DNA from: Candidatus Sulfomarinibacteraceae bacterium
GTDB lineage: Bacteria > Acidobacteriota > Thermoanaerobaculia > Thermoanaerobaculales > Sulfomarinibacteraceae
Length of the DNA stretch: 64,000 nucleotides
NCBI GenBank assembly: GCA_963796455.1
Contig: CAWCLO010000005.1
Span: 96,001 to 160,000 of the forward strand
Direction: 5' to 3'
Part shown: piece after piece, positions 8,569 through 39,087 of the stretch
How the letters are laid out: every line of letters begins with the position of its first letter
How positions within the stretch are numbered: the stretch's first letter is position 1
Notes under the pieces: model-generated
Told to the model about the DNA's origin: nothing
The model's database searches: none
Seen by the model: the letters and a program-made list of their open reading frames with translations, nothing else
Translations under genes and position numbers: made by a program

Positions 8569-8958
8569 GATCCTCTTTTGTTACCGATTCGTAACTGTGC
8601 TGTCGTGCTCAGAAGACGGTAGCGCGATCTCGTGGAACGATTGCGACCGGCAGGGGTGATCACCTTCGGTCGGATCTCCTGTGCTTTGGTGACTTCGCTC
8701 GGATCCCCACGGTGCAAACCAGGATTGGCAGTGGTTGATATCCGAGCAGTTCACTAGGGAATAAATATTGCGAATTTCGTGCCCGAATGGAGAGCGCTGA
8801 AGGCTTCCAGCGAATTCGATCGGGATGCGTTTTTGTGCGGTTCCCGCGAGCTCGGTGTGTTGATCGGCGCGGAATTTCGAAGCTTTCAAACATGTCCATT
8901 TGCGAGATTGTGCAACCATCACAATATGCAAAAATGGTTATATAATTCATTTTGAGGA

Positions 8959-9912
8959 GTGATATTGATGACTACTCTTATTTACGTCATCGCGTACCTC
9001 GGCATTGTTTTCTTTCTCATCGCTGTCGTCGCCCGATTCGTGATGTGGTCGAAGATGCCGATGCATCTCAGATGGGAGCTCTACCCCGTCGCTCATGAGG
9101 GTGGAGGGCGCGCGGCCTATGGCGGTTCCTATCTCGAGGAGAGCGATTGGTGGACCAAAAAGCGCGAGGTCTCCATGCTCGGAGAGCTCAAGGTCATGGT
9201 GCCGGAGATTCTCTTCCTGGTCGCCCTCCGAGAGCACAATTCCAAGCTCTGGAAATGGTCCTTCCCGTTCCATTTTGGGCTCTATCTGGTCGCCGCTGCC
9301 ACGATCATGATGATCGTCGGAGGGATCGCGGGTGCGCTCCTTCCGGCTGCGGTCGCCGGCCCGACGAATACCATCTTTTCGGCAGTCGTTCCCTTCTTGG
9401 GCGGTGCCGGCCTGATCCTCGGCATCATCGGTGCAGTCGGTCTCTTTGCCCGTCGCCGCGGTCGTTCATTGAAGGACTATACGGCGCCTGCGGATCTCTT
9501 CAACCTGTTGTTTTTCATCGTGGCCTTTGGCATCGCGCTCATCCTCTTCATTGGATTTGATCGCGATTTTTCGATGGTCTCGGCCTTTGTCGCCAACCTG
9601 GTGGCATTCAAGTTCGCGCCCCTGGCCATCGGCGGCACCGGAGCGCTGTTGCTCCTGTTGTCGGTCGTGCTGCTATCGCTCCTGGTGGCGTATATCCCGA
9701 CCACCCACATGTCGCACTTTGTAGGCAAGTACTTTGCCTATCACTCGATTCGTTGGAAGGATGACCCGAATCTCGCCGGTGGCGATGAAGAGGTCGTCAT
9801 CGAAGAACTGCTCAATCGACCGATTTCGTGGTCTGCCCACCACATCGGCGGTGACGGAAAGAAGACCTGGCTCGAGGCAGCGACCGAAGAGCCGGAGGTG
9901 AAAACCAAATGA
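8959..9912 (+). CDS. NarI/DsrM-like cytochrome b membrane subunit (paralogue)
   Basis: PMHLRWELYPVAHE, FPFHFGLY, PTTHMSHF; multiple TM helices; ATGA overlap with the next gene. Confidence 0.8.
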   Translation: MILMTTLIYVIAYLGIVFFLIAVVARFVMWSKMPMHLRWELYPVAHEGGGRAAYGGSYLEESDWWTKKREVSMLGELKVMVPEILFLVALREHNSKLWKWSFPFHFGLYLVAAATIMMIVGGIAGALLPAAVAGPTNTIFSAVVPFLGGAGLILGIIGAVGLFARRRGRSLKDYTAPADLFNLLFFIVAFGIALILFIGFDRDFSMVSAFVANLVAFKFAPLAIGGTGALLLLLSVVLLSLLVAYIPTTHMSHFVGKYFAYHSIRWKDDPNLAGGDEEVVIEELLNRPISWSAHHIGGDGKKTWLEAATEEPEVKTK

Positions 9913-11513
9913 AACAGCCCGATAGCGTCAAGGACATTTCCAGAAACCCCGGTCAGCCGCTGGCTCATATCGATGCGCTCGAGCAGATCCCGCTGCCTCC
10001 TCCGTTTGACAAGATCGACGACGAGCCGGAATTTGCCCAGATTTCGGACGCGGCACGCGAAAAATTCGTGGTGCTCGACGACACCATCGCGGTCAATATC
10101 CCCAAACCGGAGACCAAAGAGGACGAGGCTCGCCTCGTTGACGGTTTCTTGAGGGGTCTCGAGCGGTGCATGAGCACTGAGGACAACTGGGCCTTTCTGC
10201 AGCCCTTCGAGATGTCGATGGAACACTGCGCACACTGTCAGACCTGTTCCGACGCGTGTCCTATCTATGAGGAGAGCGGCGAGAACGAGCTCTACCGGCC
10301 GATGTATCGCTCCGAAATTCTCCGCCGGATCTATTTCAAGTACGTCAAAAAGCAGTCGCCGAAGGTCCATGGCGACATCGATCTCAACTGGGAGACCGTC
10401 GCCAGGTTGATCGAGCTTTCTTATCGTTGCAACCTCTGCCGCCGTTGTGCGCAGACCTGTCCGATCGGCGTCGACAATGCCCTCCTGTCCCGCGAGATCC
10501 GCAAGATCGCGTCGATGGAGATGGGGATCGTGCCGAAAGAGCTTCACAAAGACGGTTCGGTGCTGCAGCTCGAAGTGGGTTCCTCCACCGGCATGACGCC
10601 CATGATCGTCAAAGACAATATCGAGTTCATCGACGAAGACACCGCCGAGCGCACGGGAATCGAAATCGAAACCCCCTGGGATGTTGAAGGCGCCGATATC
10701 CTCCTCATTCACAATGCGGGCGAGATCATGGCATGGCCCGAAAACCCGGGCGCCTTCGCTACCGTTTTCGAAGCTGCCGGGTTGTCGTGGACCATGTCAT
10801 CGGAGGCCGTGGCCTACGACGGCATCAACTACGGCGTCTGGTACGACGACGTCCAGTTCGCCCGGGTCGCGGTCAAGCATGCGGCAGCCGCCAAAAAGCT
10901 CGGTGTGAAGAAGATCGTCCTTGGCGAGTGCGGCCACGCGCACAAGGCCCTGACCGTTATCGCGGACAAGATTCTCACCGGCGACCTGAACATCCCCCGT
11001 GAGAGCTCCATGGTGACCCTGCGCGATATCGTGCGCTCGGGCAAGCTCAAACTCGATCCGAGCCGCAATGATTTTCCGGTGACCCTGCACGATCCCTGCA
11101 ACCTCGTCCGGTTGATGGGCGTGGTCTCGCCGCAACGCGAGATCCTCGAGGCCGTGCTGCCGCCGGGACGCTTCCGCGAAATGACGCCCCACGGTGTGGA
11201 GAATTATTGTTGTGGCGGCGGCTCCGGCTTCGCCATCATGTCGGGCCACAACTTCCAGGATTGGCGCCACCGCCTGACCGGACGCAAGAAGTTCCGCCAG
11301 ATCCTCGACGCCTTCCAGGACGAGCCGATGGACAAGGAACACCCCAAGTACCTGTGTGCGCCGTGTTCCAACTGCAAAGGTCAGATCCGCGACATCATCA
11401 ATTATTACGACGCCTGGGAAAAGGCCGGCATCTACTACGGTGGTCTGGTCGAACTCATCGTCAACGCCATGGTCGATGCGGAGCCTGGGTTCATCGATTG
11501 GGAGTGGCACTAA
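9909..11513 (+). CDS. DsrK/HdrD-like (Fe-S)-binding CCG-domain protein (paralogue)
   Basis: CAHCQTCSDACP and CNLCRRCAQTCP clusters; GECGH, TLHDPC, CCGGG, CSNC. Confidence 0.85.
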   Translation: MKQPDSVKDISRNPGQPLAHIDALEQIPLPPPFDKIDDEPEFAQISDAAREKFVVLDDTIAVNIPKPETKEDEARLVDGFLRGLERCMSTEDNWAFLQPFEMSMEHCAHCQTCSDACPIYEESGENELYRPMYRSEILRRIYFKYVKKQSPKVHGDIDLNWETVARLIELSYRCNLCRRCAQTCPIGVDNALLSREIRKIASMEMGIVPKELHKDGSVLQLEVGSSTGMTPMIVKDNIEFIDEDTAERTGIEIETPWDVEGADILLIHNAGEIMAWPENPGAFATVFEAAGLSWTMSSEAVAYDGINYGVWYDDVQFARVAVKHAAAAKKLGVKKIVLGECGHAHKALTVIADKILTGDLNIPRESSMVTLRDIVRSGKLKLDPSRNDFPVTLHDPCNLVRLMGVVSPQREILEAVLPPGRFREMTPHGVENYCCGGGSGFAIMSGHNFQDWRHRLTGRKKFRQILDAFQDEPMDKEHPKYLCAPCSNCKGQIRDIINYYDAWEKAGIYYGGLVELIVNAMVDAEPGFIDWEWH

Positions 11514-21731: not shown

Positions 21732-21744
21732 GGGGAGGGACACA

Positions 21745-23253: not shown

Positions 23254-24287
23254 CCGTTTCACGTCGGGGTTTCGTTGGAGGGGCGGTCGGAGCCATGCTC
23301 GGTGCGGGCGCGGCGGACGCCGGAACCGTCAAGCATTTCGACGGCTACCCGGGACGCTACGGCCTGCTTCATGACACGACACTCTGCGTCGGATGCAGAT
23401 CGTGCGAGGTCGCCTGTGCGGAGGTCAATGAGCTTCCGAAACCGGCGATCCCGGTCGACGACCCGGTGGCTTTCGAGACCACCAGGAGGACATCGGATAC
23501 CGCCCTCACGGTCGTCAACCGCTATGTCGATGGGACCGGCGACGAGCCGGACGTCTACCGCAAACTGCAGTGCATGCACTGCAACGAGCCGTGCTGCGCG
23601 ACGGTGTGCCTGGTCCACGCCTTCGAGAAGACACCCGAGGGCCCGGTCCTCTACCATCCCGAACTCTGCATGGGTTGCCGCTACTGCATCACGGCGTGCC
23701 CTTACAACGCCCTGGCGTACGAGTACGACAACCCGCTGACACCAGAGGTCATGCGCTGCACCATGTGCTACCCGCGCATCAAGGAGGGGCTGGTGCCCGG
23801 CTGCGCAGAGGCCTGCCCAATGGGTGCGATCACCTTTGGAGAGCGGGAAGAACTGCTCGAGGTGGCGCGGGAGCGGATTCGAAAGTACCCCGACCGCTAC
23901 ATCAACCACATCTTCGGCGAACACGAATTCGGCGGCACCAGCTGGCTCGTGCTCGCAGGAGAGGCGTTCGGAAAGCTCGGTCTCGAAGAAGGCCTCACTT
24001 CGGAACCGCTGCCGGCGATTGCCACGAGCTACCTGGGGGTCGTTCCGCTGGTGCTGACGATCTATCCCGGGCTCCTGATGGGAATCCACGCCTTCACCAA
24101 GCGCCAGGAAGCGGTGGCGAAGCGAGAGAAAAACGAGGCGGTTGCCCAGACGCTGGAGGCCGCCGGTGAAGAGACGAAGAAGAAGCTCGCCGCAGCGGCG
24201 GAACGAGCCGCCAAGGACAAGGAACGAGCGGTCGCTGCCGCAGTCAAGAAGGCGCTCGCCGAGGCCGAGAAAGGGGCTGACTCATGA
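23250..24287 (+). CDS. hmcB: HmcB-like Tat-exported 4x[4Fe-4S] protein with membrane anchor
   Basis: SRRGFV Tat motif; CVGCRSCEVAC, CMHCNEPCCATVC, CMGCRYCITACP, CTMC; C-terminal TM and Ala/Lys tail. Confidence 0.85.
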   Translation: MTVSRRGFVGGAVGAMLGAGAADAGTVKHFDGYPGRYGLLHDTTLCVGCRSCEVACAEVNELPKPAIPVDDPVAFETTRRTSDTALTVVNRYVDGTGDEPDVYRKLQCMHCNEPCCATVCLVHAFEKTPEGPVLYHPELCMGCRYCITACPYNALAYEYDNPLTPEVMRCTMCYPRIKEGLVPGCAEACPMGAITFGEREELLEVARERIRKYPDRYINHIFGEHEFGGTSWLVLAGEAFGKLGLEEGLTSEPLPAIATSYLGVVPLVLTIYPGLLMGIHAFTKRQEAVAKREKNEAVAQTLEAAGEETKKKLAAAAERAAKDKERAVAAAVKKALAEAEKGADS

Positions 24288-25472
24288 TTGACGCAACCGT
24301 TGATGTCAGCCCGTCGCCTGCCGGGAAAGCGGGATACCTGACGCCGTTCAACATCATCACGAGCATCATCCTCGCCGGGGGTGCGGTGATTCTCGGCATC
24401 CGCTTCATCTACGGGCTGTCGGCCACGACAAACCTCGACCACAACTACCCGTGGGGCATTTGGATCGGGTTCGATGTGATGAGCGGAGTTGCCCTTGCCG
24501 CGGGCGGCTTTGTGACCTCGACGGCGGTCTACGTCTTCGGGATGAAGGAGTACAAGCCGGTTGTTCGCGCGGCAATCCTGACCGGCTTTCCTGGGGTACT
24601 TCCTGGTCGTCCTCGGTTTGCTCGCCGATCTCGGTCGGCCGTGGCGGTTGCCGTACGCGTTCATCAAATCGGCCGGGCCGACCTCCCCGCTCTTCGAGGT
24701 GTCCCTGTGCGTGGCGCTCTATCTGACCGTGTTGTTCATCGAGTCGACGCCGGCGGTGCTCGAGTGGCTCGGCCTCAAACGGTGGCGGAAAGTGGTGGGC
24801 AGCCTGACTCTCGGCCTCACCATCTTCGGGCTGATCCTCTCGACGATGCACCAGTCGACCCTGGGAGCGATGTTCATGTCGGTCCCGACGAAGCTCCACC
24901 CCCTGTGGTATTCAGCGCACATCCCGGTGCACTTCTTCGTCTCCGCGGTCGCGGCGGGGTTGTCGATGGTCATTGTCGAAGGGATGTTTTCCCATCGCGC
25001 GTACCACGACAAGGTCGACATCACCACTCAGCATTTCGAGAACATCAATTTCGGTCTGGCCAAGGCGGCGTCGGTCACCCTTGGAATCTACCTGGCAATC
25101 AAGATCGTTGCCCTGGCCCTCGAAGACGAGTGGCACCTCCTGGCAACCGGATGGGGCGCGTGGTATCTGGTCGAGGTGGTGGGTTTTGTTCTCCTGCCGT
25201 GTGTGCTCTTCGCTGTGGGCTATCGAGAGCGAAAGCTGGTGCTGGTGAGGACAGCGGCGGTCATAACCGTGTTGGGAATCGTCCTCAACAGGTTCAACAC
25301 GACCTTCATCGTATTCAACTACAACTTGCCGGCCAGTCAGCGCTACGTCCCGTCGTGGATGGAAATCTGGGTGACGGTGGCATTCATCACCTTTGCGGTG
25401 GTGGTCTTCCGATGGATCGCGAACCGCATGCCGATCATGTACGAGCACCCCGACTGGCGTGGGCAGCACTAA
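24284..25472 (+). CDS. hmcC: HmcC-like NrfD/HybB membrane protein (one frameshift near 24590)
   Basis: YPWGIWIGFDVMSGVALAAGG, then DLGRPWRL and MHQSTLG in the next frame; removing one T of GGCTTTC joins them. Confidence 0.8.
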
Positions 25473-25479
25473 GGAGCCG

Positions 25480-25605
25480 ATGATGCACACACTTTTTGAT
25501 TTCCTCACCCACACCAAAGCCATCGGCTACATCGTGGCCTTCGGCCTGTTGCTGGGGTTCATCCCGTTTTGGAAATTCTTGACAGAGCGCGAGCGAGAGG
25601 AATAA
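25480..25605 (+). CDS. hmcD: HmcD-like small membrane protein
   Basis: MHTLFDFLTHTKAIGYIV...FWKFLT, 41 aa, AAGGAG RBS, follows hmcC. Confidence 0.75.
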   Translation: MMHTLFDFLTHTKAIGYIVAFGLLLGFIPFWKFLTEREREE

Positions 25606-25642
25606 TTCAATGAATGTTGTTTTCTCAGAAACGGAGGTCGCG

Positions 25643-26008
25643 ATGAGTCACACTGTCCTGGTCGTGGACGACGAGGCCGATATCCGGAAGTTCATCACGG
25701 CGGTTCTCCAGAAGAGGGGTTACGAGACCCTGACGGCCGAGAACGGGCGCGAGGCTTTCGACGTGGTGGAAAGCGAACGGCCGGATCTCATCATTCTCGA
25801 TCTGCAGATGCCCAACCAAACCGGGACCGATTTTTTCCGCCGTCTTTCCAAGGACAAGGACCTGTCGGCCATCCCGGTGATCGTCGTCAGCGGTCTCGCC
25901 GGCCGCCACCTGGCTGTGCGGGAGCCGTTTGCTGTTTTCGACAAGCCGATCGATCCGGATGAGTTCGGTGAGACCGTAGACCGCGCGTTGGGTCTGCATG
26001 AAGAATGA
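25643..26008 (+). CDS. Single-domain response regulator
   Basis: VVDD, DLIILDLQMP, IPVIVVSG, KP. Confidence 0.9.
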   Translation: MSHTVLVVDDEADIRKFITAVLQKRGYETLTAENGREAFDVVESERPDLIILDLQMPNQTGTDFFRRLSKDKDLSAIPVIVVSGLAGRHLAVREPFAVFDKPIDPDEFGETVDRALGLHEE

Positions 26009-26095
26009 CGAGATTGTCGTGGAGATTCCTTTGATTTCCAGTGGCAACGAGAAGAGGCAGGGGCCAGGCCCCATTCTCACTCCCGAGAAAGGAGT

Positions 26096-26929
26096 ATGAC
26101 CATGAACGTTCTAGAGAGAAACAAGAAGACCGGCGGGGTGGTGCAGAAAAAGGACCACTCGAATCCTCGAACGCGACTGACGGCGGTAGAGAAAATGGAC
26201 GATCCGGAAGCTCTGATCGAAGTGGCGTGCACCGACGATTCACCACGGGTCCGCCTGACGGCGGTCTCCCGAATTCACGATGACATCAACTTGGAAAAGG
26301 TCGCGAAAGGGGCAGAGTTCCTCGATGTTCGCCTGGTGGCCGTTGAACGGATTTTTTCCCAGGGTGTCGTGGCTGGGCTTCTGAAGGCCCCGGAGAACCT
26401 CGAACTCATCGGGATGTGTTTCTCGAAGATCTCGGACCGCCGGATCATCGAGTCCATTGCTGAAGACCCGGACTACTCGGCAGCGGTGCGGCGGATGGCC
26501 GTCGAGTTCTTTGCCGACGAGTCGTATCTGTCCGAAATCACTGACAAGCAGGAGGAGCCCGAGCGCAAGAGCGACGAGGCTGTGCAGGCCTTTGTCGAGG
26601 TCTATGGCGGTGGTCTCCGCGGAGTCCGGGCCATCGGGCGCTTCCGACGCAGCGAAAAGGCCCTGCGCGCACTGGGCACGATCGCCCGCCAGGGCGGGGA
26701 AACCGGTGGGCTCGCGGTCGAGTATCTGTGCTCGGCGCTTGGCAGCGCGAATGTGAAACTCGTCGAGTGTGCTGCGTCGGAACTCCAGCAACTCAAGGAG
26801 CCCGAGTTGGTCGATTGTGTGATCTGTGCCCTCGACAATCCTGGTTTGAGGGAACCGATCCGCGAAGTTTTGCGGCGAATCGACACCCCCGAGGCGCGTG
26901 CCGCCCTCGGTGACTCGGCAACCCAGTAA
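26096..26929 (+). CDS. Helical (HEAT-like) repeat hypothetical protein
   Basis: Repeated (V)RL.AV..I.D...L..(V/I)A units; AAGGAG RBS. Confidence 0.65.
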   Translation: MTMNVLERNKKTGGVVQKKDHSNPRTRLTAVEKMDDPEALIEVACTDDSPRVRLTAVSRIHDDINLEKVAKGAEFLDVRLVAVERIFSQGVVAGLLKAPENLELIGMCFSKISDRRIIESIAEDPDYSAAVRRMAVEFFADESYLSEITDKQEEPERKSDEAVQAFVEVYGGGLRGVRAIGRFRRSEKALRALGTIARQGGETGGLAVEYLCSALGSANVKLVECAASELQQLKEPELVDCVICALDNPGLREPIREVLRRIDTPEARAALGDSATQ

Positions 26930-26955
26930 TATTACCGAGATCGGAGGAGCGCACC

Positions 26956-27333
26956 ATGGCGAAGAAAGTTCTCATCATCGATGACGAAAAAGACATGCGA
27001 GTCTACCTCGAGGCGGTGTTCCGCAAAGCCGGTTACGAGACCGAAACCGCATCCAACGGTGAGGAGGGAGCGTGGCTGGCCGAGGCGCACCAGCCCGACC
27101 TGATCACTCTTGACGTTTTGATGCCGAAGAAGTCGGGTATCAAGGCCTACCGCGGTCTCCGCACCTCGGAGAAGACGAAGCATATCCCGATCGTGGTACT
27201 GACGGGTTTGACCCGGCTCGACGACTTCTTCGGCGATCTCGAGGAACTCCCTCAACCGGACGCTCTGGTTGAGAAACCGATTGAGCGGGACCTCTTCTTG
27301 GAAAAAGTGGAGGGAATTATCGGAGCTGCTTGA
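26956..27333 (+). CDS. Single-domain response regulator
   Basis: IIDD, DLITLDVLMP, IPIVVLTG, EKP. Confidence 0.9.
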   Translation: MAKKVLIIDDEKDMRVYLEAVFRKAGYETETASNGEEGAWLAEAHQPDLITLDVLMPKKSGIKAYRGLRTSEKTKHIPIVVLTGLTRLDDFFGDLEELPQPDALVEKPIERDLFLEKVEGIIGAA

Positions 27334-27354
27334 CAGCTCCGGCGGCCGGGTGTT

Positions 27355-28715
27355 TCAGGCCTCGACGGCTTGCGATGGGTGAACCACCGGATCTGCAGGA
27401 TGTTCGAGGTCGGCATTCGGGATTACGACGATGAATTTCGTCCCTTCTCCGGGGACGGATTCGAAAGTGACCTTTCCGCCGTGCTCTTCGGCCACCTTCT
27501 GGACCACGAGCAGGCCGATGCCCGTTCCCTCGGTTCCCTTGGACGAAAAGAAGTCCTGGAACACCTTGCTGTTGAGTTCCTCGGGAATGCCCGGTCCGTC
27601 GTCCTCGACCTCGAGGATTTGCGAGCCCTCTCCGTTCTGTCTGCAGCGGAGTGTCACGGTGTGGCGGCTCTTTGTCCGGGGAGGGATCGAAACGGCAGGC
27701 GTCGATCGCGTTGGCGACCAGATTGCAGAGCAGGCTGTGCAGGCCGTCCCTGTCGAAGGTCCCTCGACGCGGCGGGTTTCCGAACTCGGTGCGGATCTCG
27801 ATGTTCTCGCCCTTCATCCGAGCGGCATAGAGATCGCACACTTCGGTCACGATCTCCTGCGGGTCGACATCCGGCTGGAAGTTGGGCTCGCGGTCCTTGG
27901 AGCAGTAGAGCAGGTCCTTGACGATGCCGGTGACCAGTCCGACATTTCGCTCCACCATCTCCCAACCCATGCCGATGGCCTCGCGATCGTCCTCCTCGAG
28001 ACCGTCATTGACGATGAAGATGCCGCCCTCGAGCCCCATGAGGATGTTCTTGACCCGGTGTGCCATCCCGGCGACCGCGCGGCCGGTCAGGGCGAGTTGT
28101 CGCTGCAGGCGTTTGACCTCGGTGACATCGGTGAAGACTTCCATGACGGCTGAAATCTCGCCGTTGTCGTCATACACGGGTTGGGTGTGGACCACGACGT
28201 TGATCCGGCGCCCGTCGCGTGCGCACGAGCGTCTCCTCGCTGGAGTAGATCCCGCCGTCCGCAAAGGTCCGGTCGACCTGGCAGTCGAGGCACGGTTTGC
28301 TTCTCTTCTTGCAGATTTCGTAGCATAGAGAACGGTCTGTGACATCGAACTCCTTACGGTAGAGCGAGTTGGCCTCGATGACGTGGTGGTCCCGGTCGAG
28401 GACACAGATGAAGCACGGAACAGCGGCGAAGAGCTGGGCGCGGTCCCGTCTGGTCTGGAACAGTTCTCGGCGCAGATCGTCGATGGGCTCGACTGGCTCC
28501 TTGCTCCGACCCCGATTCCGGGCAACGATGCCTCCGACTGTGAGGATGGAGACCAGAGCCGCGCCGCCCACCGCCAGGGGCGGCAAGAACTGGGCTGCAA
28601 GGCCTACGGCCGCTGCCGTGGCGATGCTGCAAAAAAGAAAGATGAACGTCCGAGTCACGCCCGCGGCATTTGTTGCCGGCTGAGTGTTTTTGCTGGGTTG
28701 TGGCGGAACGGGCAC
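27355..28715 (-). CDS. Membrane PAS sensor histidine kinase (two apparent frameshifts, ~28225 and ~27665)
   Basis: TM pair, PAS with CYEIC..PCLDC, H-box GMAHRVKN, NLVANAIDAC, EDDGPGI, GTGIGL in successive frames; start uncertain. Confidence 0.7.
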
Positions 28716-28883: not shown

Positions 28884-30296
28884 ATGAATTCGGACGAACC
28901 TGGAGTCGGTCAGATTATTCTCGACAATGTGGCCGACGGCGTGTTCACGGTCGATCACGAGTGGCGCATCAGCTACTTCAACCGGGCCGCCGAACGGATC
29001 ACCGGTGTGAGTCGCGATTCGGCCGTCGGGCGCCGCTGCTGCGATGTCTTCCGGGCCAGCATCTGTGTCGACGGCTGTGCGCTCCGCCACACACTGGAGA
29101 CGGGTGAACCGGTGGTCAACAGGGCTGCATTCATCATCGACGCCAGGGAGCGCAAGGTCCCAATTAGTATTTCGACCTCGGTCCTGCGGAACGATCGCGG
29201 ACAGTTGGTTGGCGGTGTCGAGACCTTTCGCGACCTGAGCCAGGTGGAGGAGCTGCGGAAGGAGCTCGAGGGCCGGTTTTCTCTCGGTGACATCATCGGC
29301 CGAAGCCGAGCCATGCGCGATCTCTTCGGAGTCCTGCCGGCCATCGCCGCCAGCGAGAGCACGGTCGTTATCCACGGTGCGAGCGGAACCGGGAAGGAGC
29401 TCTTCGCTCGTGCCATTCACGATCTGTCGCCACGGAGCAAGAAGCGTTTCGTGGCCATCAATTGCGGCGCTCTCCCGGACACGCTTCTCGAGTCCGAGCT
29501 CTTTGGACACAAAGCGGGAGCCTTCACTGATGCCCGCAAAGACAAGCGGGGGAGGTTCGAGGTCGCAGAGGGGGGCACGATCTTTCTCGACGAGATCGGT
29601 GACATCTCGCCCGCAATGCAGGTCCGCCTGCTCAGGGTCCTGCAGGAACACGAGTTCGAGCCCCTAGGGAGTGTGGATCCGGTGGCCGCGGACGTTCGCG
29701 TTGTCGCGGCCACCCACCGGGACCTGGCCGACCTTGTCAGCAGGGGAGATTTTCGGGAAGATCTCTACTATCGCATCAACGTCATGCGACTCGAACTGCC
29801 ATCGCTGGCTGGGCGTCGCGAGGACATCCCACTGTTGATTGACCATTTTGTCGATCGCTTCAATCGACTCCAGGAGAAGAGCATCGCCGGCGTCTCCGAC
29901 GAGGTGCTCGGCCTGTTGATGAATTACGATTTCCCGGGCAACGCCCGTGAGCTCGAGAACATCATCGAACACGCATTTGTTTTGTGCAGCAGCAGCATGA
30001 TTGAACTCCAGCACCTGCCGCCGGAATTGGCTCGGGGACGGGGAGAGGCCGAACTGGCCTCGGCTCCCGGAATGACGCTCCGCTCACTGGAACGACTCCA
30101 CGTAGAAGATGCTTTGCGACGCCATCTCGGCAATCGGAAGGCTGCAGCCGAGGAGCTCGGCATCCACCCGAGCACGCTGTACCGAAAGATGCGGGACCTG
30201 GGCATCGAAGCCCCGGAAACGGATGGTCGAAGCCGACTTCCTGTGATTCACGAGAGCCGCTCGGCTGATCGACTGGCGACCACTGTCAGGGAATAA
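28884..30296 (+). CDS. PAS-domain sigma-54 enhancer-binding protein, OrpR-like
   Basis: PAS with CCDVFRASICVDGC; GASGTGKE, ESELFGH..GAFTDA, FLDEIGD, FPGNARELEN, C-terminal HTH. Confidence 0.9.
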   Translation: MNSDEPGVGQIILDNVADGVFTVDHEWRISYFNRAAERITGVSRDSAVGRRCCDVFRASICVDGCALRHTLETGEPVVNRAAFIIDARERKVPISISTSVLRNDRGQLVGGVETFRDLSQVEELRKELEGRFSLGDIIGRSRAMRDLFGVLPAIAASESTVVIHGASGTGKELFARAIHDLSPRSKKRFVAINCGALPDTLLESELFGHKAGAFTDARKDKRGRFEVAEGGTIFLDEIGDISPAMQVRLLRVLQEHEFEPLGSVDPVAADVRVVAATHRDLADLVSRGDFREDLYYRINVMRLELPSLAGRREDIPLLIDHFVDRFNRLQEKSIAGVSDEVLGLLMNYDFPGNARELENIIEHAFVLCSSSMIELQHLPPELARGRGEAELASAPGMTLRSLERLHVEDALRRHLGNRKAAAEELGIHPSTLYRKMRDLGIEAPETDGRSRLPVIHESRSADRLATTVRE

Positions 30297-30320
30297 GCGC
30301 GAACCCTGTCACACGCTTCC

Positions 30321-30336
30321 GTTACGCATATGTAAC
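30321..30336. promoter_or_regulatory. Imperfect palindrome, candidate activator site
   Basis: GTTAC-GCATAT-GTAAC ~95 nt upstream of the sigma-54 site. Confidence 0.4.
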
Positions 30337-30401
30337 ACCGAGGGTGGTGACGCTGTTTCTCATCCCGCGGGATCCCACCGAAGTAACATCTCGTCAACGA
30401 C

Positions 30402-30419
30402 TTGTGAAAAGCTGCACGA
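30402..30419. promoter_or_regulatory. Rex-like operator upstream of the dsrA promoter
   Basis: TTGTGAA-AAGC-TGCACGA vs Rex TTGTGAA-N4-TTCAC(A/G)A. Confidence 0.55.
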
Positions 30420-30429
30420 GATAGGTCAC

Positions 30430-30445
30430 TGGCACATAGGTTGCA
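30430..30445 (+). promoter_or_regulatory. Sigma-54 promoter upstream of dsrA
   Basis: TGGCAC-ATAGG-TTGCA, exact consensus. Confidence 0.8.
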
Positions 30446-30790
30446 CCGTTGACCAATGGTTCGGTGTCGATTGCGTGAAGAAAGGTACACGGTGCACAAC
30501 GGCTTGAAAAAACTCCTGCAAATCGAGGGCTCCAGGGCGGTGTGCTTCGTTCAGTGTTTTTCGTGCATCGGGTCGTCGGCCCGCTGCGCTGATCGTTTGA
30601 TCTTCGGTCTCAAGCCGATCAGGGCTTTCACCATCGGTGTGTCGGTGAATGTACCGTTCGGCTATTTCCTATCAACCGTGGTGTTCTCCAAGTTCTGGTC
30701 GAACATCAGTTCGCTGATGTGAGGTCGGTTCGTGGATTCACGACTCGCTTTGCCCCAGCAAGCAACAACAAATTAAGGAAAGGAGTGGCC

Positions 30791-31990
30791 ATGACAGAAG
30801 AGAAGAAGTCATCGACGCCGCTAATTGACGAGCTCGAATCAGGCCCCTGGCCGAGCTTTGTCAAGGAGTTCAAGAAGGAGGCCCACAAACCGATGGTCCA
30901 GGACGCCATGAGCCAGCTTGAGCGCTCCTATGAGGAGCACCTCAGTCACTGGAAGCATGGCGGGTTGGTCGGTGTGATGGGTTATGGCGGAGGCGTGATC
31001 GGGCGCTACTCGGATCTGGCCGACGAGTTCCCGAACGTTGCCGAGTTCCACACCCACCGCGTCAACCAGCCGTCAGGGTGGTTCTACACCACCGATGCCC
31101 TGCGCACCCTGTGCGACATCTGGGACAAACACGGTTCGGGTCTGACCAACATGCACGGCTCCACCGGCGACATCGTTTTCCTGGGCTCGACAACCGAGGC
31201 CATCGAACCCCTCTTCAAAGACCTCACCGAAAAGGGTTGGGATCTCGGCGGATCGGGCTCCAACATGCGGACGCCGAGCTGCTGTGTGGGTCCGGCGCGT
31301 TGTGAGTGGGCCTGCTACGACACCCTGGATGCTTGCTACAACATCACCCAGGAATGGCAGGACGAGCTCCACCGCCCGTTCTTCCCCTACAAGTACAAGT
31401 TCAAGTTTGCAGGCTGCCCGAACGACTGCGTGGCCTCGATCGCACGTTCGGATTGCTCGGTCATCGGCACCTGGAAGGACGACATTCAGGTCAACCAGGC
31501 CAAGGTCGTCGAGTATGCCACCAATGGCGTCGACATCCAGAGCGAAATCTGTGATCTCTGCCCGACCAAGTGCGTCGACTGGGATGGCAAGGCGCTGGAT
31601 ATCGACAATGAGAACTGCGTCCGCTGCATGCATTGCATCAACGTGATGCCGAAGGCCCTGAAACCCGGCAAGGAGCGCGGTGCGACGATCCTGATCGGCG
31701 GCAAGGCCCCGATCGTCGGTGGCGCCCTCTTGTGCTCGGTCTTCGTGCCCTTCCTCGAGATGGATCCGGAATCGGATTATGAAGATCTCAAGGAACTCAC
31801 CGAGGCCATCTGGGATCTCTGGGGTGAGCACGGCAAGGCCCGCGAACGCACCGGTGAGTTCATCCAGCGAGTCGGTATGTCGAACTTCCTCGAGGAGATC
31901 GGGCTCGACCCGATTCCCGAGATGGTCATGGCACCGCGCTCGAATCCTTATATTTTCTTCGATGACGAAATCTTCGAAGACGCGGAATAG
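30791..31990 (+). CDS. dsrA: Dissimilatory sulfite reductase alpha subunit
   Basis: [52 protein letters not shown] 30791 after AGGAG. Confidence 0.98.
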
Positions 31991-32004
31991 GAAGGGAGGA
32001 AGAA

Positions 32005-33078
32005 ATGGCTGAAGAACGCATCACTGATATCGGACCCCCACATTACGAACAGTTCCTCCCGCCGGTCATCAAGGACAACTATGGCAAATGGGACCACCAC
32101 GAGATTCTCCGCCCCGGCGTCATGGTTCACGTAGGTGAGACCGGCGACAAGCTGTTCACCGTACGTGCCGCCTCGCCGCGGCTGCTTGCGATCACATCGA
32201 TCCGCGAGTTCTGCGACATCGCCGACAAATACTGCGATGGTTACCTGCGGTTCACGAGCCGCAACAACGTCGAGTTCCTTCTGAGCGACGAAGCGAATGT
32301 CGATCCGCTGGTCAAAGACATCGAAGCGCTTGGCTACCCGATCGGCGGCATGGGCAACGCCATCTCGAACCCCGTCCACACCCAGGGCTGGGTGCACTGC
32401 CACTCGTCGGCCTCCGATGCCTCGGGTGTCTGCAAAGCTCTCATGGACGAGCTCATCGGCCGCTTCACGAGCATGGAACTGCCGGGCAAACTCCGTCTGG
32501 CATACGCCTGCTGCCTCAACATGTGCGGCGCGGTCCACTGCTCGGACATCGCGGTCCTGGGTGTTCACACCCGTGCTCCGGTGATCGATCACGCCGACCT
32601 GCCGAAGATGTGCGAGCTCCCGACCCTCGTCGCTTCGTGCCCGACCGGCGCCATCCGTCCGGCCACCGTCGACGGCATCCAGTCGATCGAGATCGTCGAA
32701 GAGCAGTGCATGTACTGCGGCAACTGCTACACGGTCTGCCCGGCGGTGAAGATCAACAATGCCGAGACCGATGGCATCTCGATCTGGGTCGGCGGCAAGG
32801 TCTCCAACGCCCGCTCGACACCGAAATTCTCGAAACTCGCGATTCCCTTCATTCCCAATAATCCGCCGCGTTGGCCCGAAGTGGTCGAAGCGGTTACCAA
32901 GATCGTGAACGTCTACGCCGAAAATGCGCGCAAACACGAGCGCATGGGCGAGTGGATCGAGCGTATCGGTTGGCCGAAGTGGTTCGAACTCAATGATCTC
33001 GAGTTCACCAAGTACCACATCGACGACTTCAAACACGCCGGCGAGACCTTCACGAGGACGGCGCAGCTGCGCCACTAG
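32005..33078 (+). CDS. dsrB: Dissimilatory sulfite reductase beta subunit
   Basis: [39 protein letters not shown]. Confidence 0.98.
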
Positions 33079-33087
33079 GAGGACACC

Positions 33088-33321
33088 ATGGCTGAGGTCA
33101 CGATCGATCAGATCGCAGACGCCATGTTCGAACTGGTCAAATCGACCTATGGCAAGAAAAACCTGAAACCAATGGACGTTACCAAGGCGATGATTGAAGA
33201 TTTCGGCGACGATGCGGTGGACAAGAAGATGTGCAAAAAGGCCTTGCGCCAGCTCATCGACTCCGGCCGCTGCACCTACAAGTATGCCGGCGGCAGCTAC
33301 GTGACGCTTCCAGAAGACTGA
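33088..33321 (+). CDS. dsrD: DsrD
   Basis: 77 aa Lys-rich winged-helix-sized protein directly after dsrB, KKALRQLIDSGRC.Y..AGGS. Confidence 0.8.
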   Translation: MAEVTIDQIADAMFELVKSTYGKKNLKPMDVTKAMIEDFGDDAVDKKMCKKALRQLIDSGRCTYKYAGGSYVTLPED

Positions 33322-33330
33322 GCGCTGATC

Positions 33331-33364
33331 ACTCCCCCGGGCGCGAGCCCGGGGGAGTATTTTT
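33331..33364 (+). terminator. Intrinsic terminator after dsrD
   Basis: ACTCCCCCGGGC-gcga-GCCCGGGGGAGT followed by ATTTTT. Confidence 0.8.
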
Positions 33365-33393
33365 CGCGCCGCTACGAACCACGGAGGACGAAA

Positions 33394-33837
33394 ATGGGAG
33401 AGAAGAAACTTTCGGGCCCGGAACGGGCGAAGTTCGCAGTTGACGTACTGCGGCAGTGGCAGGGCATCGAACGAGATGCCATCGAGACGACCGCCCAGAT
33501 CATGGAGAAGACCGACAACCTCCTGATCCGCCAGGTCATGGAGATCATTCGTAACGACTCGGTCCAGCATCACCGGGTGCAGCAGTTCCTCATCGACAGC
33601 ATCACCAAGACGCCTGTCACTCTGAACCGCGATGAAATCGCCGAGGTGTGGGGACAGATCGAGGCGCACGATGAACTCGAGCGGCAGACGATCGCTCTCG
33701 CCAACCAACTCCTCGAGCAGACGACCGACCCGGTGCAGAAAGTCCTGCTCAACTACCTCCTTCACGATGAGGAAAAGCACGACGGGATTCTCGGGGAGCT
33801 CGACGAGTTGAAGAAATACATGGCCAAGATCTCCTGA
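33394..33837 (+). CDS. Ferritin/rubrerythrin-like hypothetical protein
   Basis: Helical; paired E...DSVQH and E...DEEKH motifs; GGAGG RBS. Confidence 0.65.
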   Translation: MGEKKLSGPERAKFAVDVLRQWQGIERDAIETTAQIMEKTDNLLIRQVMEIIRNDSVQHHRVQQFLIDSITKTPVTLNRDEIAEVWGQIEAHDELERQTIALANQLLEQTTDPVQKVLLNYLLHDEEKHDGILGELDELKKYMAKIS

Positions 33838-33869
33838 GGCGGATTGAGCCGGGAATAGAGGAGTAGTAA

Positions 33870-35606
33870 ATGGGTCTGCTGAAAAAGAAGGACAAGAAAA
33901 AGTCCAGCAAAATGACTGCACGCATGAGCGGATCGGGGGGCAGTTCAGCCCTTTCGTCGCTCCGGCCGAGGTACGTGGAAAGCCTTCCGCCGTGTTCGGG
34001 CAATTGCCCCAGCGGCAACGATATCCGCGGCTGGCTGACCGTCATCAGTCTGCGCGAAAAGTTGGGCCTGAGCCTCGACGAAGCGTGCGAGCAGGCGTGG
34101 CGCATCGAAATGGAGACAAACCCCTTCCCGTCGGTGATGGGGCGGGTATGTCCTCATCCCTGTGAGACAGGTTGCAACCGCGGTCAGAAAGACGGCCCGG
34201 TCGGAATCAACTCGGTGGAAAGGTTTATTGGCGACTACGCCATCGACCACGACCTCAAAGCAGAAGCCATCGAGGGTGAGGGTGCCAAGGACCAGAAGAT
34301 CGCCGTGATCGGCGGCGGGCCCTCCGGACTCTCCTGCGCCTACCAGTTGGCCCGTCGCGGGTACAAGGTGACGGTCTTCGAAGGCCTGCCGAAGGCCGGC
34401 GGCATGCTCCGTTATGGAATCCCCGTCTATCGTCTGCCGCGGGAGATCCTCGATGCCGAGATTCAGCGTATCGTCGATCTCGGGGTCGAGCTCAAATGCG
34501 ACACCAAAATCGGTAAGGACGTAAGCTTCGAGGATATCCGCAAAGAATACGCCGCAATCTATGTCGCGATCGGCGCCCACCAGGGCAAAAACCTCGGCAT
34601 CCCTGGAGAAGACGGCCCCGGCATCTGGACCGGTACCGAGTTTCTCAATCACGCCAACTCCGGCAAAGAGGTCGATCTCGGCACCAAGGTGATCGTGATC
34701 GGTGGCGGCGACACCGCTGTCGATGCGGCCCGTGTTTCCAAGCGCCTCGGTTCGGATGCGGCCTCGATCGCGTCCAAAATGGGGGCCGAAGTCACCATCC
34801 TTTATCGCCGGACCCGGACCGAGATGCCGGCCATCGAGCGCGAAATCGAAGAGGCGATCGAGGAGGATATCCATATCGAGTTCCTCGCAGCGCCGCACGA
34901 GATTCTGCGCGACGACGACGGCAAAGTTCGCGCCATGGTGGTCCAGCGCATGGAGCTCGGCGAGCCCGATGATTCGGGTCGCCGGCGCCCGGTCGCCATT
35001 GAAGGCGACACCTATGAGATCGAGGTCGAGACCGTGATCACCGCGGTCAGCCAGAAACCCGATCTTGCGGCCGTCAAATCGACGGAATTGGGCGACGGTT
35101 GGCTCAATGGCGACGAGTGGGGCTTTACCGGCATCGACGGCATCTGGACCGGCGGTGACAACATCAATCTCGGTATCGCCACCACCTCGATCGGCCAGGC
35201 CAGCAAGGCGGCTGATGCGATCCACGCCCACCTGCAGGGCACGACGCCACAGGAGGTCCAAGAGGGCGAAATGATCCGTGCCGAAAAGCTCAAGCTTGAT
35301 TGGTACCCACCGGCAGAACGCAAACAACGACAGGTCAAAGCGCCCGAAGATCGCTTGGCGAACCCCTTCGACGAGGTCGATCTGGGTTTGTTGGCCGAAG
35401 ATGCGCTGGCCGAAATCGACCGCTGTTTCAGTTGCGGCAGGTGCTTCGGTTGTGAAAACTGCTGGATGTACTGCCAGAACAGCGTATTTAGCAAAACAAA
35501 AGTAGTCTCCCCCGGAAACTTCTTTGAAATCAAGAAGATGGAGATGTGCGACGGGTGCAAGAAGTGCTGGGAAGAGTGCCCGTGCGGTTACATCGTGGGT
35601 GAGTGA
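33870..35606 (+). CDS. dsrL: DsrL NAD(P)H:acceptor iron-sulfur flavoprotein (YRR-type)
   Basis: PPCSGNCP, GRVCPHPCE..CNR, two Rossmann motifs, LYRRT, RCFSCGRCFGCENCWMYC, CDGCKKCWEECPCG. Confidence 0.92.
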   Translation: MGLLKKKDKKKSSKMTARMSGSGGSSALSSLRPRYVESLPPCSGNCPSGNDIRGWLTVISLREKLGLSLDEACEQAWRIEMETNPFPSVMGRVCPHPCETGCNRGQKDGPVGINSVERFIGDYAIDHDLKAEAIEGEGAKDQKIAVIGGGPSGLSCAYQLARRGYKVTVFEGLPKAGGMLRYGIPVYRLPREILDAEIQRIVDLGVELKCDTKIGKDVSFEDIRKEYAAIYVAIGAHQGKNLGIPGEDGPGIWTGTEFLNHANSGKEVDLGTKVIVIGGGDTAVDAARVSKRLGSDAASIASKMGAEVTILYRRTRTEMPAIEREIEEAIEEDIHIEFLAAPHEILRDDDGKVRAMVVQRMELGEPDDSGRRRPVAIEGDTYEIEVETVITAVSQKPDLAAVKSTELGDGWLNGDEWGFTGIDGIWTGGDNINLGIATTSIGQASKAADAIHAHLQGTTPQEVQEGEMIRAEKLKLDWYPPAERKQRQVKAPEDRLANPFDEVDLGLLAEDALAEIDRCFSCGRCFGCENCWMYCQNSVFSKTKVVSPGNFFEIKKMEMCDGCKKCWEECPCGYIVGE

Positions 35607-35627
35607 GGTCAACGGGCGGTTGAGCCG

Positions 35628-37031
35628 ATGCGTGTCAAGGTTCCTCGATTAGTTGTCGCCGGGCTCTCCGGTGACAGCGGCAAGACCCTGGTCAGTCTGG
35701 GTCTTGCCAGGGCCTTGGCGGATCGTGGGCTCAAGGTGCGGCCTTTCAAAAAGGGGCCGGACTATATCGACACCGCGTGGCTCGGTGTTGCGGCTCGTTC
35801 AACCTGTCGGAATCTCGACACCTTCCTCATGAAGGATGAGGCCATGGCGGCTTCGCTCAGCCAAGCCGCGCAGGATGCGGACCTCATTCTCGTGGAGGGC
35901 AACCGCGGCCTCTTTGACGGTGTCGATGTTGAAGGAAGCCACTCGACGGCCATGTTGGCCCGTCGAATGGCCGCGCCGGTGGTGTTGGTCATCGACTGCA
36001 CCAAAATGACGAGGACCGCTGCTGCGCTGGTCATGGGCTGCAGAGCCATGGATCCAGAGCTCGACCTCGCCGGCGTGATCTTGAATCGGGTCGGTTGCGG
36101 ACGCCACGAAACAATCGTTCGTGAGTCGGTGGCCGGCATCGCAGGGACCCCGGTTCTGGGCGCCATCCGCCGAATCAGGGGTGACGATCCGCTGCCGGGG
36201 CGGCACCTCGGGCTGGTGACCGCTGCGGAGCACCCCGACCCCGAGGAGGCGGTGCAGCGCGCCGCCAAGGCGGTGGTCGACGGGGTCGATCTCGATCGAC
36301 TGCTCGCTGCAGCCGAGTGGGCTCCCGAGTTGGAGCTCGTGCCTGCCGACAATCCTGTCGTGCAGGTTCCGGTCAGCATTGCGTATTTCGAAGGCGAAGC
36401 CTTCAGCTTCTATTACGCCGAAAACCTCGAGTTGCTGCGCGCTTCGGGCGTGCAGCTGGTGCCGGTGGACCCGGGCAGTGCCAGCGAGCTTCCCGAGGCC
36501 GACGGTCTCTATATCGGTGGTGGTTTCCCTGAAGTTCACGCAGCGCGTCTCGGAGCGAACTCCGCCTTTACCGAAAGCGTGCGTGCCCGTGTTGTAGCCG
36601 GTATGCCGGTTTACGCCGAGTGTGCCGGGCTCATGTATCTGGCTCGCGAATTGGTAGTCGACGGTGTGCCGCACCCGATGTCCGGCATTTTGGACCTCGT
36701 CGTCGAACAACGACCGACACCGCAAGGCCATGGTTACGAGGTCGCTGTGGTGGATCGGGACAATCCGTTCTTTCCTGCCGGGGCTCGACTGGTAGGTCAC
36801 GAATTTCATTACTCGAGAATCATGAATGCCGGGGGCGGGGATCGGACCGTCCTTCGGCTGGAACGTGGCACCGGTATCGGCGATGACCGCGACGGCATCG
36901 TCGAGGGACGTGTCTGGGCTTCTTATCTTCATCTCCACGCCAGAGCGACGCCCGAATGGGCGGACGGCTTTCTCGCTCTCGCCGCGAAATTCGCGGCCGA
37001 GCGGGGTGATCCGACGGCCGTATGCGGGTGA
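35628..37031 (+). CDS. dsrN: Siroheme amidase (cobyrinate a,c-diamide synthase family)
   Basis: SGDSGKT, KKGPDYID, EGNRGLFDG, YAECAGLMYL, GHEFHYS; dsr context. Confidence 0.9.
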   Translation: MRVKVPRLVVAGLSGDSGKTLVSLGLARALADRGLKVRPFKKGPDYIDTAWLGVAARSTCRNLDTFLMKDEAMAASLSQAAQDADLILVEGNRGLFDGVDVEGSHSTAMLARRMAAPVVLVIDCTKMTRTAAALVMGCRAMDPELDLAGVILNRVGCGRHETIVRESVAGIAGTPVLGAIRRIRGDDPLPGRHLGLVTAAEHPDPEEAVQRAAKAVVDGVDLDRLLAAAEWAPELELVPADNPVVQVPVSIAYFEGEAFSFYYAENLELLRASGVQLVPVDPGSASELPEADGLYIGGGFPEVHAARLGANSAFTESVRARVVAGMPVYAECAGLMYLARELVVDGVPHPMSGILDLVVEQRPTPQGHGYEVAVVDRDNPFFPAGARLVGHEFHYSRIMNAGGGDRTVLRLERGTGIGDDRDGIVEGRVWASYLHLHARATPEWADGFLALAAKFAAERGDPTAVCG

Positions 37032-38120: not shown

Positions 38121-38121
38121 A

Positions 38122-38439: not shown

Positions 38440-38452
38440 GATCAATCCGCCG

Positions 38453-38480
38453 CCGCCCCCGTCGTTTTTGACGGGGGCGG
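38453..38480. terminator. GC-rich hairpin after dsrC (no clear U-tract)
   Basis: CCGCCCCCGTC-gttttt-GACGGGGGCGG. Confidence 0.6.
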
Positions 38481-38507
38481 TCATGCGGTATCACTCGAGA
38501 TATTTGC

Positions 38508-39035: not shown

Positions 39036-39087
39036 GACGGTGTGTCTCCTGGTCTGAAGGGACCGAGAGGAAGGAGGGATTGAACGC

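Follow-up and report, generated by a model that had tools for sequence, protein, structure and literature searches.

OrpR (DVU2106) of Desulfovibrio vulgaris Hildenborough is a sigma-54 activator with a redox-sensitive [4Fe-4S] PAS domain; C52, C61, C65 and D/E54 are its conserved residues, deletion of the PAS domain or Cys-to-Ser changes make it constitutive, its regulon by chromatin immunoprecipitation sequencing (ChIP-seq) consists of the two orp operons only, and the fourth ligand and the physiological intermediate were left open (PMC8359166, available portion of the text). In the sigma-54 regulome table of the same strain, the loop of DVU2106 reads GAFTDA (PMC4641369, available portion). 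We analyzed a 64,000-nucleotide stretch (the window) of a Candidatus Sulfomarinibacteraceae bacterium (Acidobacteriota; genome G000, contig C5:96001-160000; positions below are in window numbering), in which a gene for an OrpR-family activator lies upstream of dsrAB. This activator is predicted to bind a palindrome, GTTAC-N6-GTAAC, and to drive a sigma-54 promoter of dsrAB while a predicted Fe-S cluster in its PAS domain is reduced, a reading to which we assign a probability of roughly 0.6.

Marine sediments and peat are rich in Acidobacteriota that carry dsr genes, and we know of little on how core respiratory enzymes are controlled in sulfate reducers beyond model Desulfovibrio. Rex, an NADH/NAD+-sensing repressor with reported control of sat and other energy genes in Desulfovibrio, resembles the proposed circuit in linking transcription of sulfate-reduction genes to redox state; it differs in being a sigma-70-type repressor that senses the pyridine-nucleotide ratio, not an Fe-S PAS sigma-54 activator. 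In the acidobacterial metagenome-assembled genome CO124, a facultative lineage with oxidases, sat, apr and dsr were transcribed almost only under anoxia, which is the behavior that the proposed circuit would produce; the available portion of that text names no regulator and has 0 occurrences of 'sigma' or 'regulator', and CO124 appears from it, without an explicit placement, to be a member of Terriglobia (PMC10564751). We found no publication linking sigma-54 or an OrpR-type sensor to dsrAB or aprBA, in agreement with an initial annotation of the window that knew of no such circuit for dsrAB; the available portions of PMC8528874 and PMC4641369 have 0 mentions of 'sigma' or 'promoter' and 0 mentions of 'dsr' or 'sulfite', respectively. 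What is new here, on comparative evidence, is that a sensor of the OrpR family would use a different DNA site and control a different and central set of genes; the OrpR sensor type itself is known.

Sigma-54 site, palindrome and transporter remnant upstream of dsrAB

Along the DNA, the activator gene is followed by the palindrome (30321), the -24/-12 promoter (30430), the remnant of a YeiH-like gene, dsrA, dsrB, an open reading frame (ORF) of 77 amino acids (aa) and a terminator, as follows.

28884..30296, plus strand: gene for a 470-aa sigma-54 enhancer-binding protein, placed in the OrpR family by Pfam domains and identity to orp-context activators
29037..29078, plus strand: PAS cysteine motif C52-C53-D54-x6-C61-x3-C65, predicted [4Fe-4S] ligands, from the translation
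29517..29534, plus strand: GAFTDA variant of the sigma-54 contact loop, residues 212-217, from the translation and orthologs
30321..30336, no strand: predicted enhancer (upstream activating sequence) palindrome GTTAC-N6-GTAAC, 109 nt upstream of the promoter
30394..30404, plus strand: TCAAnnnnTTG, possible IHF-type bending site within a genus-conserved block
30430..30445, plus strand: sigma-54 (-24/-12) promoter TGGCAC-N5-TTGCA, exact consensus
30456..30722, plus strand: 88-aa ORF, remnant of a YeiH-like (PF03601) gene by comparison with full-length relatives
30791..31990, plus strand: dsrA (TIGR02064)
32005..33078, plus strand: dsrB (TIGR02066)
33088..33321, plus strand: 77-aa ORF, listed for its position, the usual one of dsrD
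33331..33358, plus strand: intrinsic-terminator-like hairpin with a 12-bp stem, 10 G-C pairs and a T run

G000 (5.02 Mb, G+C 60%) encodes rpoN on contig C4 (526-aa open frame, Sigma54_DBD match of 222 bits). As the initial annotation had it, an exact sigma-54 consensus, TGGCACATAGGTTGCA (TGGCAC-ATAGG-TTGCA), is present on the plus strand at 30430-30445, with the -24 GG and the -12 GC ten bases apart and 345 nt between the site and the start of dsrA (30791). The bare motif was not above chance in the window, where 3 matches with at most 1 mismatch were found versus a mean of 1.13 in shuffled sequence (11 of 100 shuffles gave at least 3), and G000 carries 32 sites of the form TGG[CT]A[CT]-N5-TTGC[AT]. 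The significance of the promoter therefore lies in its conservation across loci and not in the frequency of the motif. The gene dsrA was detected in 28 of 41 genomes searched (G000 counted), and the 6 kb before dsrA were compared between the window and 23 relatives, all Thermoanaerobaculales (24 regions, among them loci of the same genus and of a sister family). A TGG[CT]A-N7-TGC site preceded dsrA in 23 of the 24 regions, with G027 as the sole exception, so that the motif is kept in relatives, a point on which the initial annotation had let its proposal depend.

In the 23-locus alignment of these regions, the majority fraction was 1.00 for the 11 specified -24/-12 positions and 0.98 for the 10 positions of the palindrome arms; it was 0.55 for the spacer of the palindrome and 0.59 for the remaining 257 well-filled columns. 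The palindrome begins 24 nt after the end of the activator gene, and its spacing to the promoter was 108 to 111 nt in 22 of 23 loci, the 23rd having a one-mismatch variant. This arrangement of palindrome and promoter is maintained in two Thermoanaerobaculales families. A wider comparison covered 80 named dsrA loci of many phyla. Of these, the 12 with a DsrA identity of at least 73% had the site in 11 cases; the other 68 (identity of 72% or less), which include loci titled Bryobacteraceae and Terriglobia, the latter being the apparent lineage of CO124, gave 2 weak pattern matches and no further site. Because it is kept in 23 of 24 loci of relatives and is nearly absent from distant named loci, the sigma-54 site is a clade-specific conserved feature of Thermoanaerobaculales dsr loci.

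The block TCAACAGTTTGTGGRAWTTTTCACGAG is also conserved in the alignment of same-genus loci and contains TCAAnnnnTTG (30394-30404), which may be an IHF-type site with reference to the consensus WATCAANNNNTTR, from which it differs at 2 positions. From the usual distance of 11 to 12 nt beyond the -12 GC, transcription of dsrA is predicted to start near 30455-30457. A scan of 30200-39200 with an E. coli-type sigma-70 consensus, which is a weak test, gave no plus-strand site and one match on the minus strand. In the window no Rfam family reached its gathering score, and thus no known leader RNA was found.

The distance of 345 nt given in the initial annotation is right, and yet this is no plain leader: it holds a decayed transporter gene, so that the ancestral unit would have been promoter-yeiH-dsrAB. 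In 6 of the 17 same-genus loci, and in 2 of the 7 from the sister family, a full gene for a membrane protein of 520 to 600 aa separates dsrA from the promoter; the 550-aa gene of relatives matches PF03601 (YeiH/UPF0324, named "putative sulfate export transporter" in NCBIfam) at 125 bits. Where it is intact, the gene ends about 65 nt before dsrA, and this spacer is variable except for the ribosome-binding site and is without a terminator, no T-run being seen in it in the alignment. The 88-aa ORF of the window joins an N-terminal piece (about 30508-30544) to a C-terminal piece (about 30545-30728), that is, the first few codons to the last 60 or so, with a deletion of approximately positions 114-1535 of the full-length form (blastn); it has no Pfam match and so does not qualify as a full-length PF03601 protein. 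Weak terminator-like hairpins in the remnant (30535-30552 and 30575-30593) are at the chance level (9 found versus 7.3 expected).

The YeiH-like gene is deleted in 11 of the 17 same-genus loci, with at least 6 different junctions (among loci L032-L047). G010 retains the 5' (N-terminal) piece without a 3' piece, and the short forms of the sister family show no recognizable remnant. Deleted and intact loci are interleaved on the activator tree, and promoter and palindrome are retained in all loci with the deletion. On this comparison we judge that the gene was lost several times independently, and its repeated loss behind an invariant promoter and palindrome argues that the promoter serves dsrAB, not the transporter only. 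A YeiH paralog (25% identical) is encoded at 45875-47551 on the minus strand of the window. This paralog or a 62% relative was found in 9 of 13 genomes with the deletion versus 0 of 6 with the intact gene, the genomes being kin, which suggests that it replaced the deleted promoter-proximal transporter.

The product of dsrA matched TIGR02064 at 571 bits (cut-off, 393) and that of the adjacent dsrB matched TIGR02066 at 491 bits, which is above the cut-off. The hairpin at 33331-33358 likely ends the promoter-dsrAB unit. An assignment of the 77-aa ORF to DsrD found no support beyond its position; searches of Pfam and NCBIfam returned a weak winged-helix match (E, 0.0013) and nothing else, and PDB held no relative.

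The activator and its relation to OrpR

The ORF at 28884-30296 encodes a protein of 470 aa with the Pfam domains PAS (12-122), Sigma54_activat (137-303), AAA_lid_14 and HTH_8 (398-437) and without a receiver domain, which bears out the PAS-AAA-HTH activator described earlier as lying directly upstream. Its translation contains GRRCCDVFRASICVDGCAL, with C52, C53, D54, C61 and C65 encoded at nt 29037-29078; the triad C52-x8-C61-x3-C65 had been recognized in the initial annotation, and C53 and D54 had been overlooked there. The GAFTDA loop was also correctly read, at residues 212 to 217. All 18 dsr-linked orthologs retain C52, C53, D/E54, C61, C65 and GAFTDA, and the loss of PAS cysteines against which the earlier proposal had to be checked was thus not found. 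The activator gene adjoins dsrA in all 17 same-genus loci, and the 5 same-genus genomes without dsrA, including G011 (95% complete), are also without an ortholog of at least 74% identity. In G000, which gave 19 tblastn matches (E of 1e-30 or less) to enhancer-binding proteins, the OrpR family is represented by the window protein alone, the next match being 36% identical. The domain type is widespread: a homolog search with the PAS region returned 4255 matches, mostly multi-PAS activators of about 800 aa from Thermodesulfobacteriota.

For comparison, OrpR orthologs were picked by orp genomic context, standing in for DVU2106. In G084, the published OrpR palindrome and a sigma-54 promoter come after the gene for a 469-aa activator and lead into Nitro_FeMo-Co, ParA/NUBPL and MinD-4Fe4S genes, and in a Smithella bin a gene for a 460-aa activator lies ahead of a similar orp-type operon. 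Full-length identity of the window protein is 54% with the G084 activator and 57% with the Smithella activator. In an alignment that includes the orp-context proteins, C52, C61, C65 and GAFTDA were invariant and residue 54 was D or E; position 53 was W or K in two orp-context proteins versus C in the dsr-linked orthologs. A tree of the activators was built from 28 rows, in which two outgroup activators fall outside the OrpR-type group (fork 90/95, drawn open). Left out of the tree was the frameshifted copy of G024; this dsr-linked activator (L032, G024:C15) is in two frames (1-306 and 307-453), through a frameshift or an assembly error. By sequence, then, the window activator belongs to the OrpR family, and its likeness to OrpR, as first noticed from motifs, is more than a matter of motif.

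It is nevertheless, as far as sequence can tell, not a functional ortholog of OrpR, because the OrpR site is absent, the adjacent site is GTTAC-N6-GTAAC and the adjacent target is dsrAB. The OrpR palindrome, GGGCGYRTTTTGCGCCC, was not found as an exact match anywhere in G000, and a relaxed search of the window also gave none. Among 401 Desulfobacterota-type genomes, the OrpR-site pattern was found in 2 and a reversed control pattern in 3, which is the chance level; one of the 2 is G084, a real orp locus by its context. What the two regulators share is the PAS-AAA+-HTH architecture lacking a receiver, C52/C61/C65 and an acidic residue 54 in the same numbering, the GAFTDA loop, a single palindrome per promoter and an activator gene beside its target. 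They differ in the DNA site, in the targets (predicted here to be dsrAB, aprBA, a DASS transporter operon and a DsrMK-like operon, instead of two orp operons), in the extra cysteine C53 and in phylum, and the Fe-S cluster of the acidobacterial protein is a prediction from its sequence.

A second OrpR-type copy, 68 to 71% identical to the dsr-linked activator, is present in the Ca. Sulfomarinibacteraceae genomes G006, G010, G014, G015 and G019 and was not found in G000. It lies behind a cNMP-binding gene and before a sigma-54 promoter and Nitro_FeMo-Co-type genes, with an OrpR-like site upstream of the promoter, and forms the sister clade of the dsr-linked activators (support, 99/98). The two copies lie in the same sulfur island and are arranged alike, with the activator gene followed by a site, a sigma-54 promoter and the target genes; the paralog differs in its orp-type target genes, its OrpR-like site and its recognition helix (TTLRRK versus STL[YF]RK in dsr-linked activators). 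The simplest reading is that a local OrpR gene was duplicated and that one copy was retargeted to dsr with a changed DNA specificity, as we infer from the tree and the helices. In some relatives the paralog lies inside the orp-type unit.

The orp-type genes of G000 (12429-17992, minus strand) stand behind a one-mismatch sigma-54 site, TGGCACACCTCGTGCA, at 18003-17988, and no GTTAC palindrome was found at this operon (12429-18101). They comprise a cNMP-binding regulator gene (17258-17992), Nitro_FeMo-Co genes (about 14822-15094 and 15846-16331), a pair of MinD-4Fe4S genes (12905-14936) and one gene with a CGGC domain (12429-13532). At 18079-18101 the DNA forms an inverted repeat with 7-bp arms, AAACTGC-N9-GCAGTTT.

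Predicted targets beyond dsrAB

The proposal of the initial annotation that an OrpR-like sensor gates dsrAB is supported by the comparison, with a predicted regulon that is wider and a DNA site that is not that of OrpR. The following elements of the window enter here.

8580..8595, no strand: second exact copy of the palindrome, before the DsrM-like/DsrK-like operon (genome pattern search)
8754..8772, plus strand: GG-N10-GC element CTAGGGAATaaATATTGCG, candidate sigma-54 promoter of the DsrMK-like operon (20-locus alignment)
8959..11513, plus strand: DsrM-like (8959-9912) and DsrK-like (9909-11513) genes, predicted members of the regulon
48074-48089 and 48114-48129, no strand: a pair of palindrome copies with one mismatch each, in the region that separates cysG from the YeiH paralog and a small Cys-rich ORF

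The exact palindrome occurs in 3 copies in the 5.02 Mb of G000, all of them intergenic. Besides those before dsrAB and the DsrM-like operon, a copy at C10:466975 precedes a cytidylate-kinase-like/CBS gene, a gene of the DASS sodium:sulfate-symporter family and a carbonic anhydrase gene, with the site TGGCACATATATTGCG 113 nt after the palindrome. Of 12 loci orthologous to this DASS operon, 11 have the palindrome and a TGGCA[CT]-N5-TTGC[GT] site 112 to 113 nt away, and none of 18 loci that are paralogous or distant has them. All 20 same-genus loci examined have the palindrome before the DsrM-like operon, the spacers being variable. The DsrK-like gene scored 330 bits with the DsrK model, below the 400-bit cut-off, and encodes Fer4_8 and CCG domains. 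The stretch 8900-8948, near the DsrM-like gene, contains a TATAAT box and a palindrome of CRP-like form, TGTGCAACCATCACA.

The aprBA genes of G000 (C1:62839-65139) are preceded by AGGCACAGCTCTTGCT and two one-mismatch copies of the palindrome. Of 22 aprB loci in relatives, 21 have a sigma-54 site ahead of the gene, which in all 14 same-genus loci lies at -88 to -98, and perfect palindromes preceded aprB in 4 of 8 sister-family loci. G027 is without cis sites at both dsrA and aprB and without any OrpR-type PAS match. With dsrAB, aprBA, the DASS operon and the DsrMK-like operon, the predicted regulon would cover most of the sulfate-reduction pathway.

The one-mismatch copies at 48074 and 48114 were conserved in the 6 loci of at least 80% identity, of 12 examined, and no canonical sigma-54 site was found beside them, so that they mark at most a possible member of the regulon. 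They are flanked by the small Cys-rich ORF and the YeiH paralog (45875-47551, minus strand) on one side and by cysG (48174-49970) on the other. The Cys-rich ORF starts near 47827 on the minus strand, upstream of the YeiH paralog; cysG, for siroheme synthase, starts at 48174 and is divergent from it, and an AT-rich long inverted repeat of AGGAAT/ATTCCT units lies at about 47960-48060.

Proposed mechanism, alternative explanations and neighboring genes

We propose that the adjacent activator, and no other protein, binds GTTAC-N6-GTAAC, and that its PAS domain would carry a [4Fe-4S] cluster by analogy with OrpR. With the cluster oxidized, the ATPase would be restrained and the promoters off; with the cluster reduced, the AAA+ domain would remodel the sigma-54 holoenzyme, so that transcription would take place only at low redox potential. 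The same activator would drive aprBA, the CBS-kinase-like/DASS operon and the DsrMK-like operon, switching sulfate respiration as one regulon, and would descend from a duplicated local OrpR gene, its DNA specificity having changed afterwards. The broadest form of this proposal, to which we give slightly less than an even chance, is that a duplicated and rewired OrpR-type Fe-S sensor is the master switch of the DASS (putative sulfate-uptake), aprBA, dsrAB and DsrMK-like units in marine Thermoanaerobaculia, that sulfate respiration there is sigma-54 dependent and strictly redox gated, and that selection kept the circuit through repeated loss of the promoter-proximal transporter gene and its replacement by a paralog.

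Several points weigh against this proposal or limit it. The 3 exact palindromes of G000 compare with about 2.6 copies expected by chance from a GC content of 0.60 (simple arithmetic), so that only placement and conservation carry weight. The element CTAGGGAATaaATATTGCG before the DsrM-like operon is conserved in the 20-locus alignment but non-canonical, and it is put forward as a promoter tentatively because only its GG and TTGC cores match the consensus; the TATAAT box near the DsrM-like gene is conserved in relatives, and the operon may therefore have two promoters. In the sister family the cis elements are present with no activator gene within 6 kb upstream in any of 7 loci, and 2 of the 7 sister-family genomes with the dsrA cis site, G031 and G036 (both 96% complete), had no close OrpR-family protein. 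The homologs that the sister family does have are 47 to 53% identical, on other contigs, with no palindrome within 1.5 kb and with a somewhat different recognition helix. In four metatranscriptome runs (shares of 0.05 to 0.07; 88% likeness), coverage was limited to 30778-31206 and left the leader and promoter uncovered; the signal is from relatives, since matches over the conserved dsrA coding sequence were mostly 90 to 95% alike, and the runs are contigs, from which no start position is derivable. These runs speak neither for nor against the circuit. All compared genomes are metagenome bins, the relatives are kin, so that counts of loci are not independent, and the Fe-S cluster, the binding to the palindrome and the start of transcription are predictions from sequence.

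In sister-family loci L048 to L053 (genomes G040, G025, G028, G034, G036 and G029), DsrMK-like genes lie directly before the array of palindrome, promoter, (yeiH) and dsrAB, and several of these loci show, some 100 nt farther upstream, another site similar to GTTAC-N6-GT[GT]AC.

The circuit might be real and its signal a different one, the cysteine-rich PAS domain sensing sulfide/polysulfide, sulfite, NO or a metal, or C53 giving an all-Cys cluster with different behavior. The presence of C53 in all 18 dsr-linked orthologs, where two orp-context proteins have W or K, speaks for this, as does a predicted regulon that is sulfur specific and for which a sulfur-compound signal would be physiologically sensible; the fourth ligand and the physiological intermediate of OrpR, left open in its description, give it further room. 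We nevertheless consider it unlikely, given that all residues implicated in OrpR are kept, that the full-length identity of 54 to 57% includes the PAS domain, where OrpR perceives its signal, and that no sequence feature indicates another ligand. Alternatively, the palindrome might be bound by another factor, of the CRP/FNR type or another enhancer-binding protein, with the OrpR-type gene beside dsrAB as a legacy of the sulfur island. CRP-family sites are 5-N6-5 palindromes, a layout that the GTTAC site fits, and a cNMP-binding regulator gene is present in the island, both of which count against the activator as the binding protein. The sister-family loci with palindrome and promoter and no adjacent activator, the absence of a close homolog from G031 and G036, the presence of a 59% homolog in G026 and G038, which have no dsrA, and the 19 tblastn matches to enhancer-binding proteins in G000 would also fit another factor. 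Such a factor would, on the other hand, have to account for a palindrome fixed about 110 nt before the -24/-12 promoters of two unrelated operons, which is typical enhancer geometry, for an activator gene that stops 24 nt short of the palindrome and is there in all 17 same-genus loci, for the joint absence of cis sites and OrpR-type PAS match in G027, and for a sister paralog that repeats the layout of gene, own site, sigma-54 promoter and target; taken together, these make it quite improbable in our view.

It might also be asked whether the sigma-54 promoter is a relic of the deleted YeiH-like gene, dsrAB using its own unrecognised promoter near dsrA. Six of the 17 same-genus loci and two of the 7 in the sister family have the transporter, not dsrA, as the first gene behind the promoter, most remnants retain the last 100 to 200 nt of its gene and could conceal an internal promoter, and the sigma-70 scan used an E. 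coli-type consensus. A relic would decay, however, and the -24/-12 elements and palindrome arms are essentially invariant in the short forms of the sister family and in all 11 same-genus loci with the deletion; G010 is without the 3' piece and the sister-family short forms are without a recognizable remnant; and the spacer of about 65 nt between yeiH and dsrA is variable except for its ribosome-binding site and has no terminator. We hold a relic to be very unlikely and prefer the OrpR-family activator acting on dsrAB through the palindrome.

If the broadest form of the proposal is true, these facultative Acidobacteriota would respire sulfate in a sigma-54-dependent manner and under strict redox control. 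As to the physiological setting, which we count in favor, a pair of COX1-family oxidase genes is present in G000. The analysis offers a concrete candidate circuit (one activator, a 16-bp enhancer site, a canonical promoter and four target operons) that could be rebuilt in a heterologous host although the organisms are uncultured. It would exemplify the duplication of a dedicated regulator, OrpR, and its recruitment to a central energy pathway, and GTTAC-N6-GTAAC together with a -24/-12 promoter could serve as cis markers for predicting redox-gated sulfate respiration in metagenomes.

The surrounding island holds further genes. Downstream of the dsrAB unit are genes for a DsrL-type NAD(P)-binding protein, a dsrN-type amidase, DsrC and dsrMKJOP. 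Between dsrP and the YeiH paralog lies a gene for a CoA-disulfide-reductase-like flavoprotein (44200-45864); the orp-context locus of G084 has a similar flavoprotein gene with an added rhodanese domain. The region between the orp-type genes and the activator gene (19721-28600) encodes an Hmc/Tmc-type complex (NarI-like, TmcB-like, 16-haem HmcA, HmcB and HmcC), single-domain response regulators (25610-26008 and 26956-27333) and a HEAT-repeat protein, and a histidine-kinase-like gene (27317-28600, minus strand) is divergent from the activator gene. A second sigma-54 system, composed of an AtoS/ZraS-like histidine kinase and an NtrC/AtoC-type response-regulator activator, is encoded at 49922-52812.

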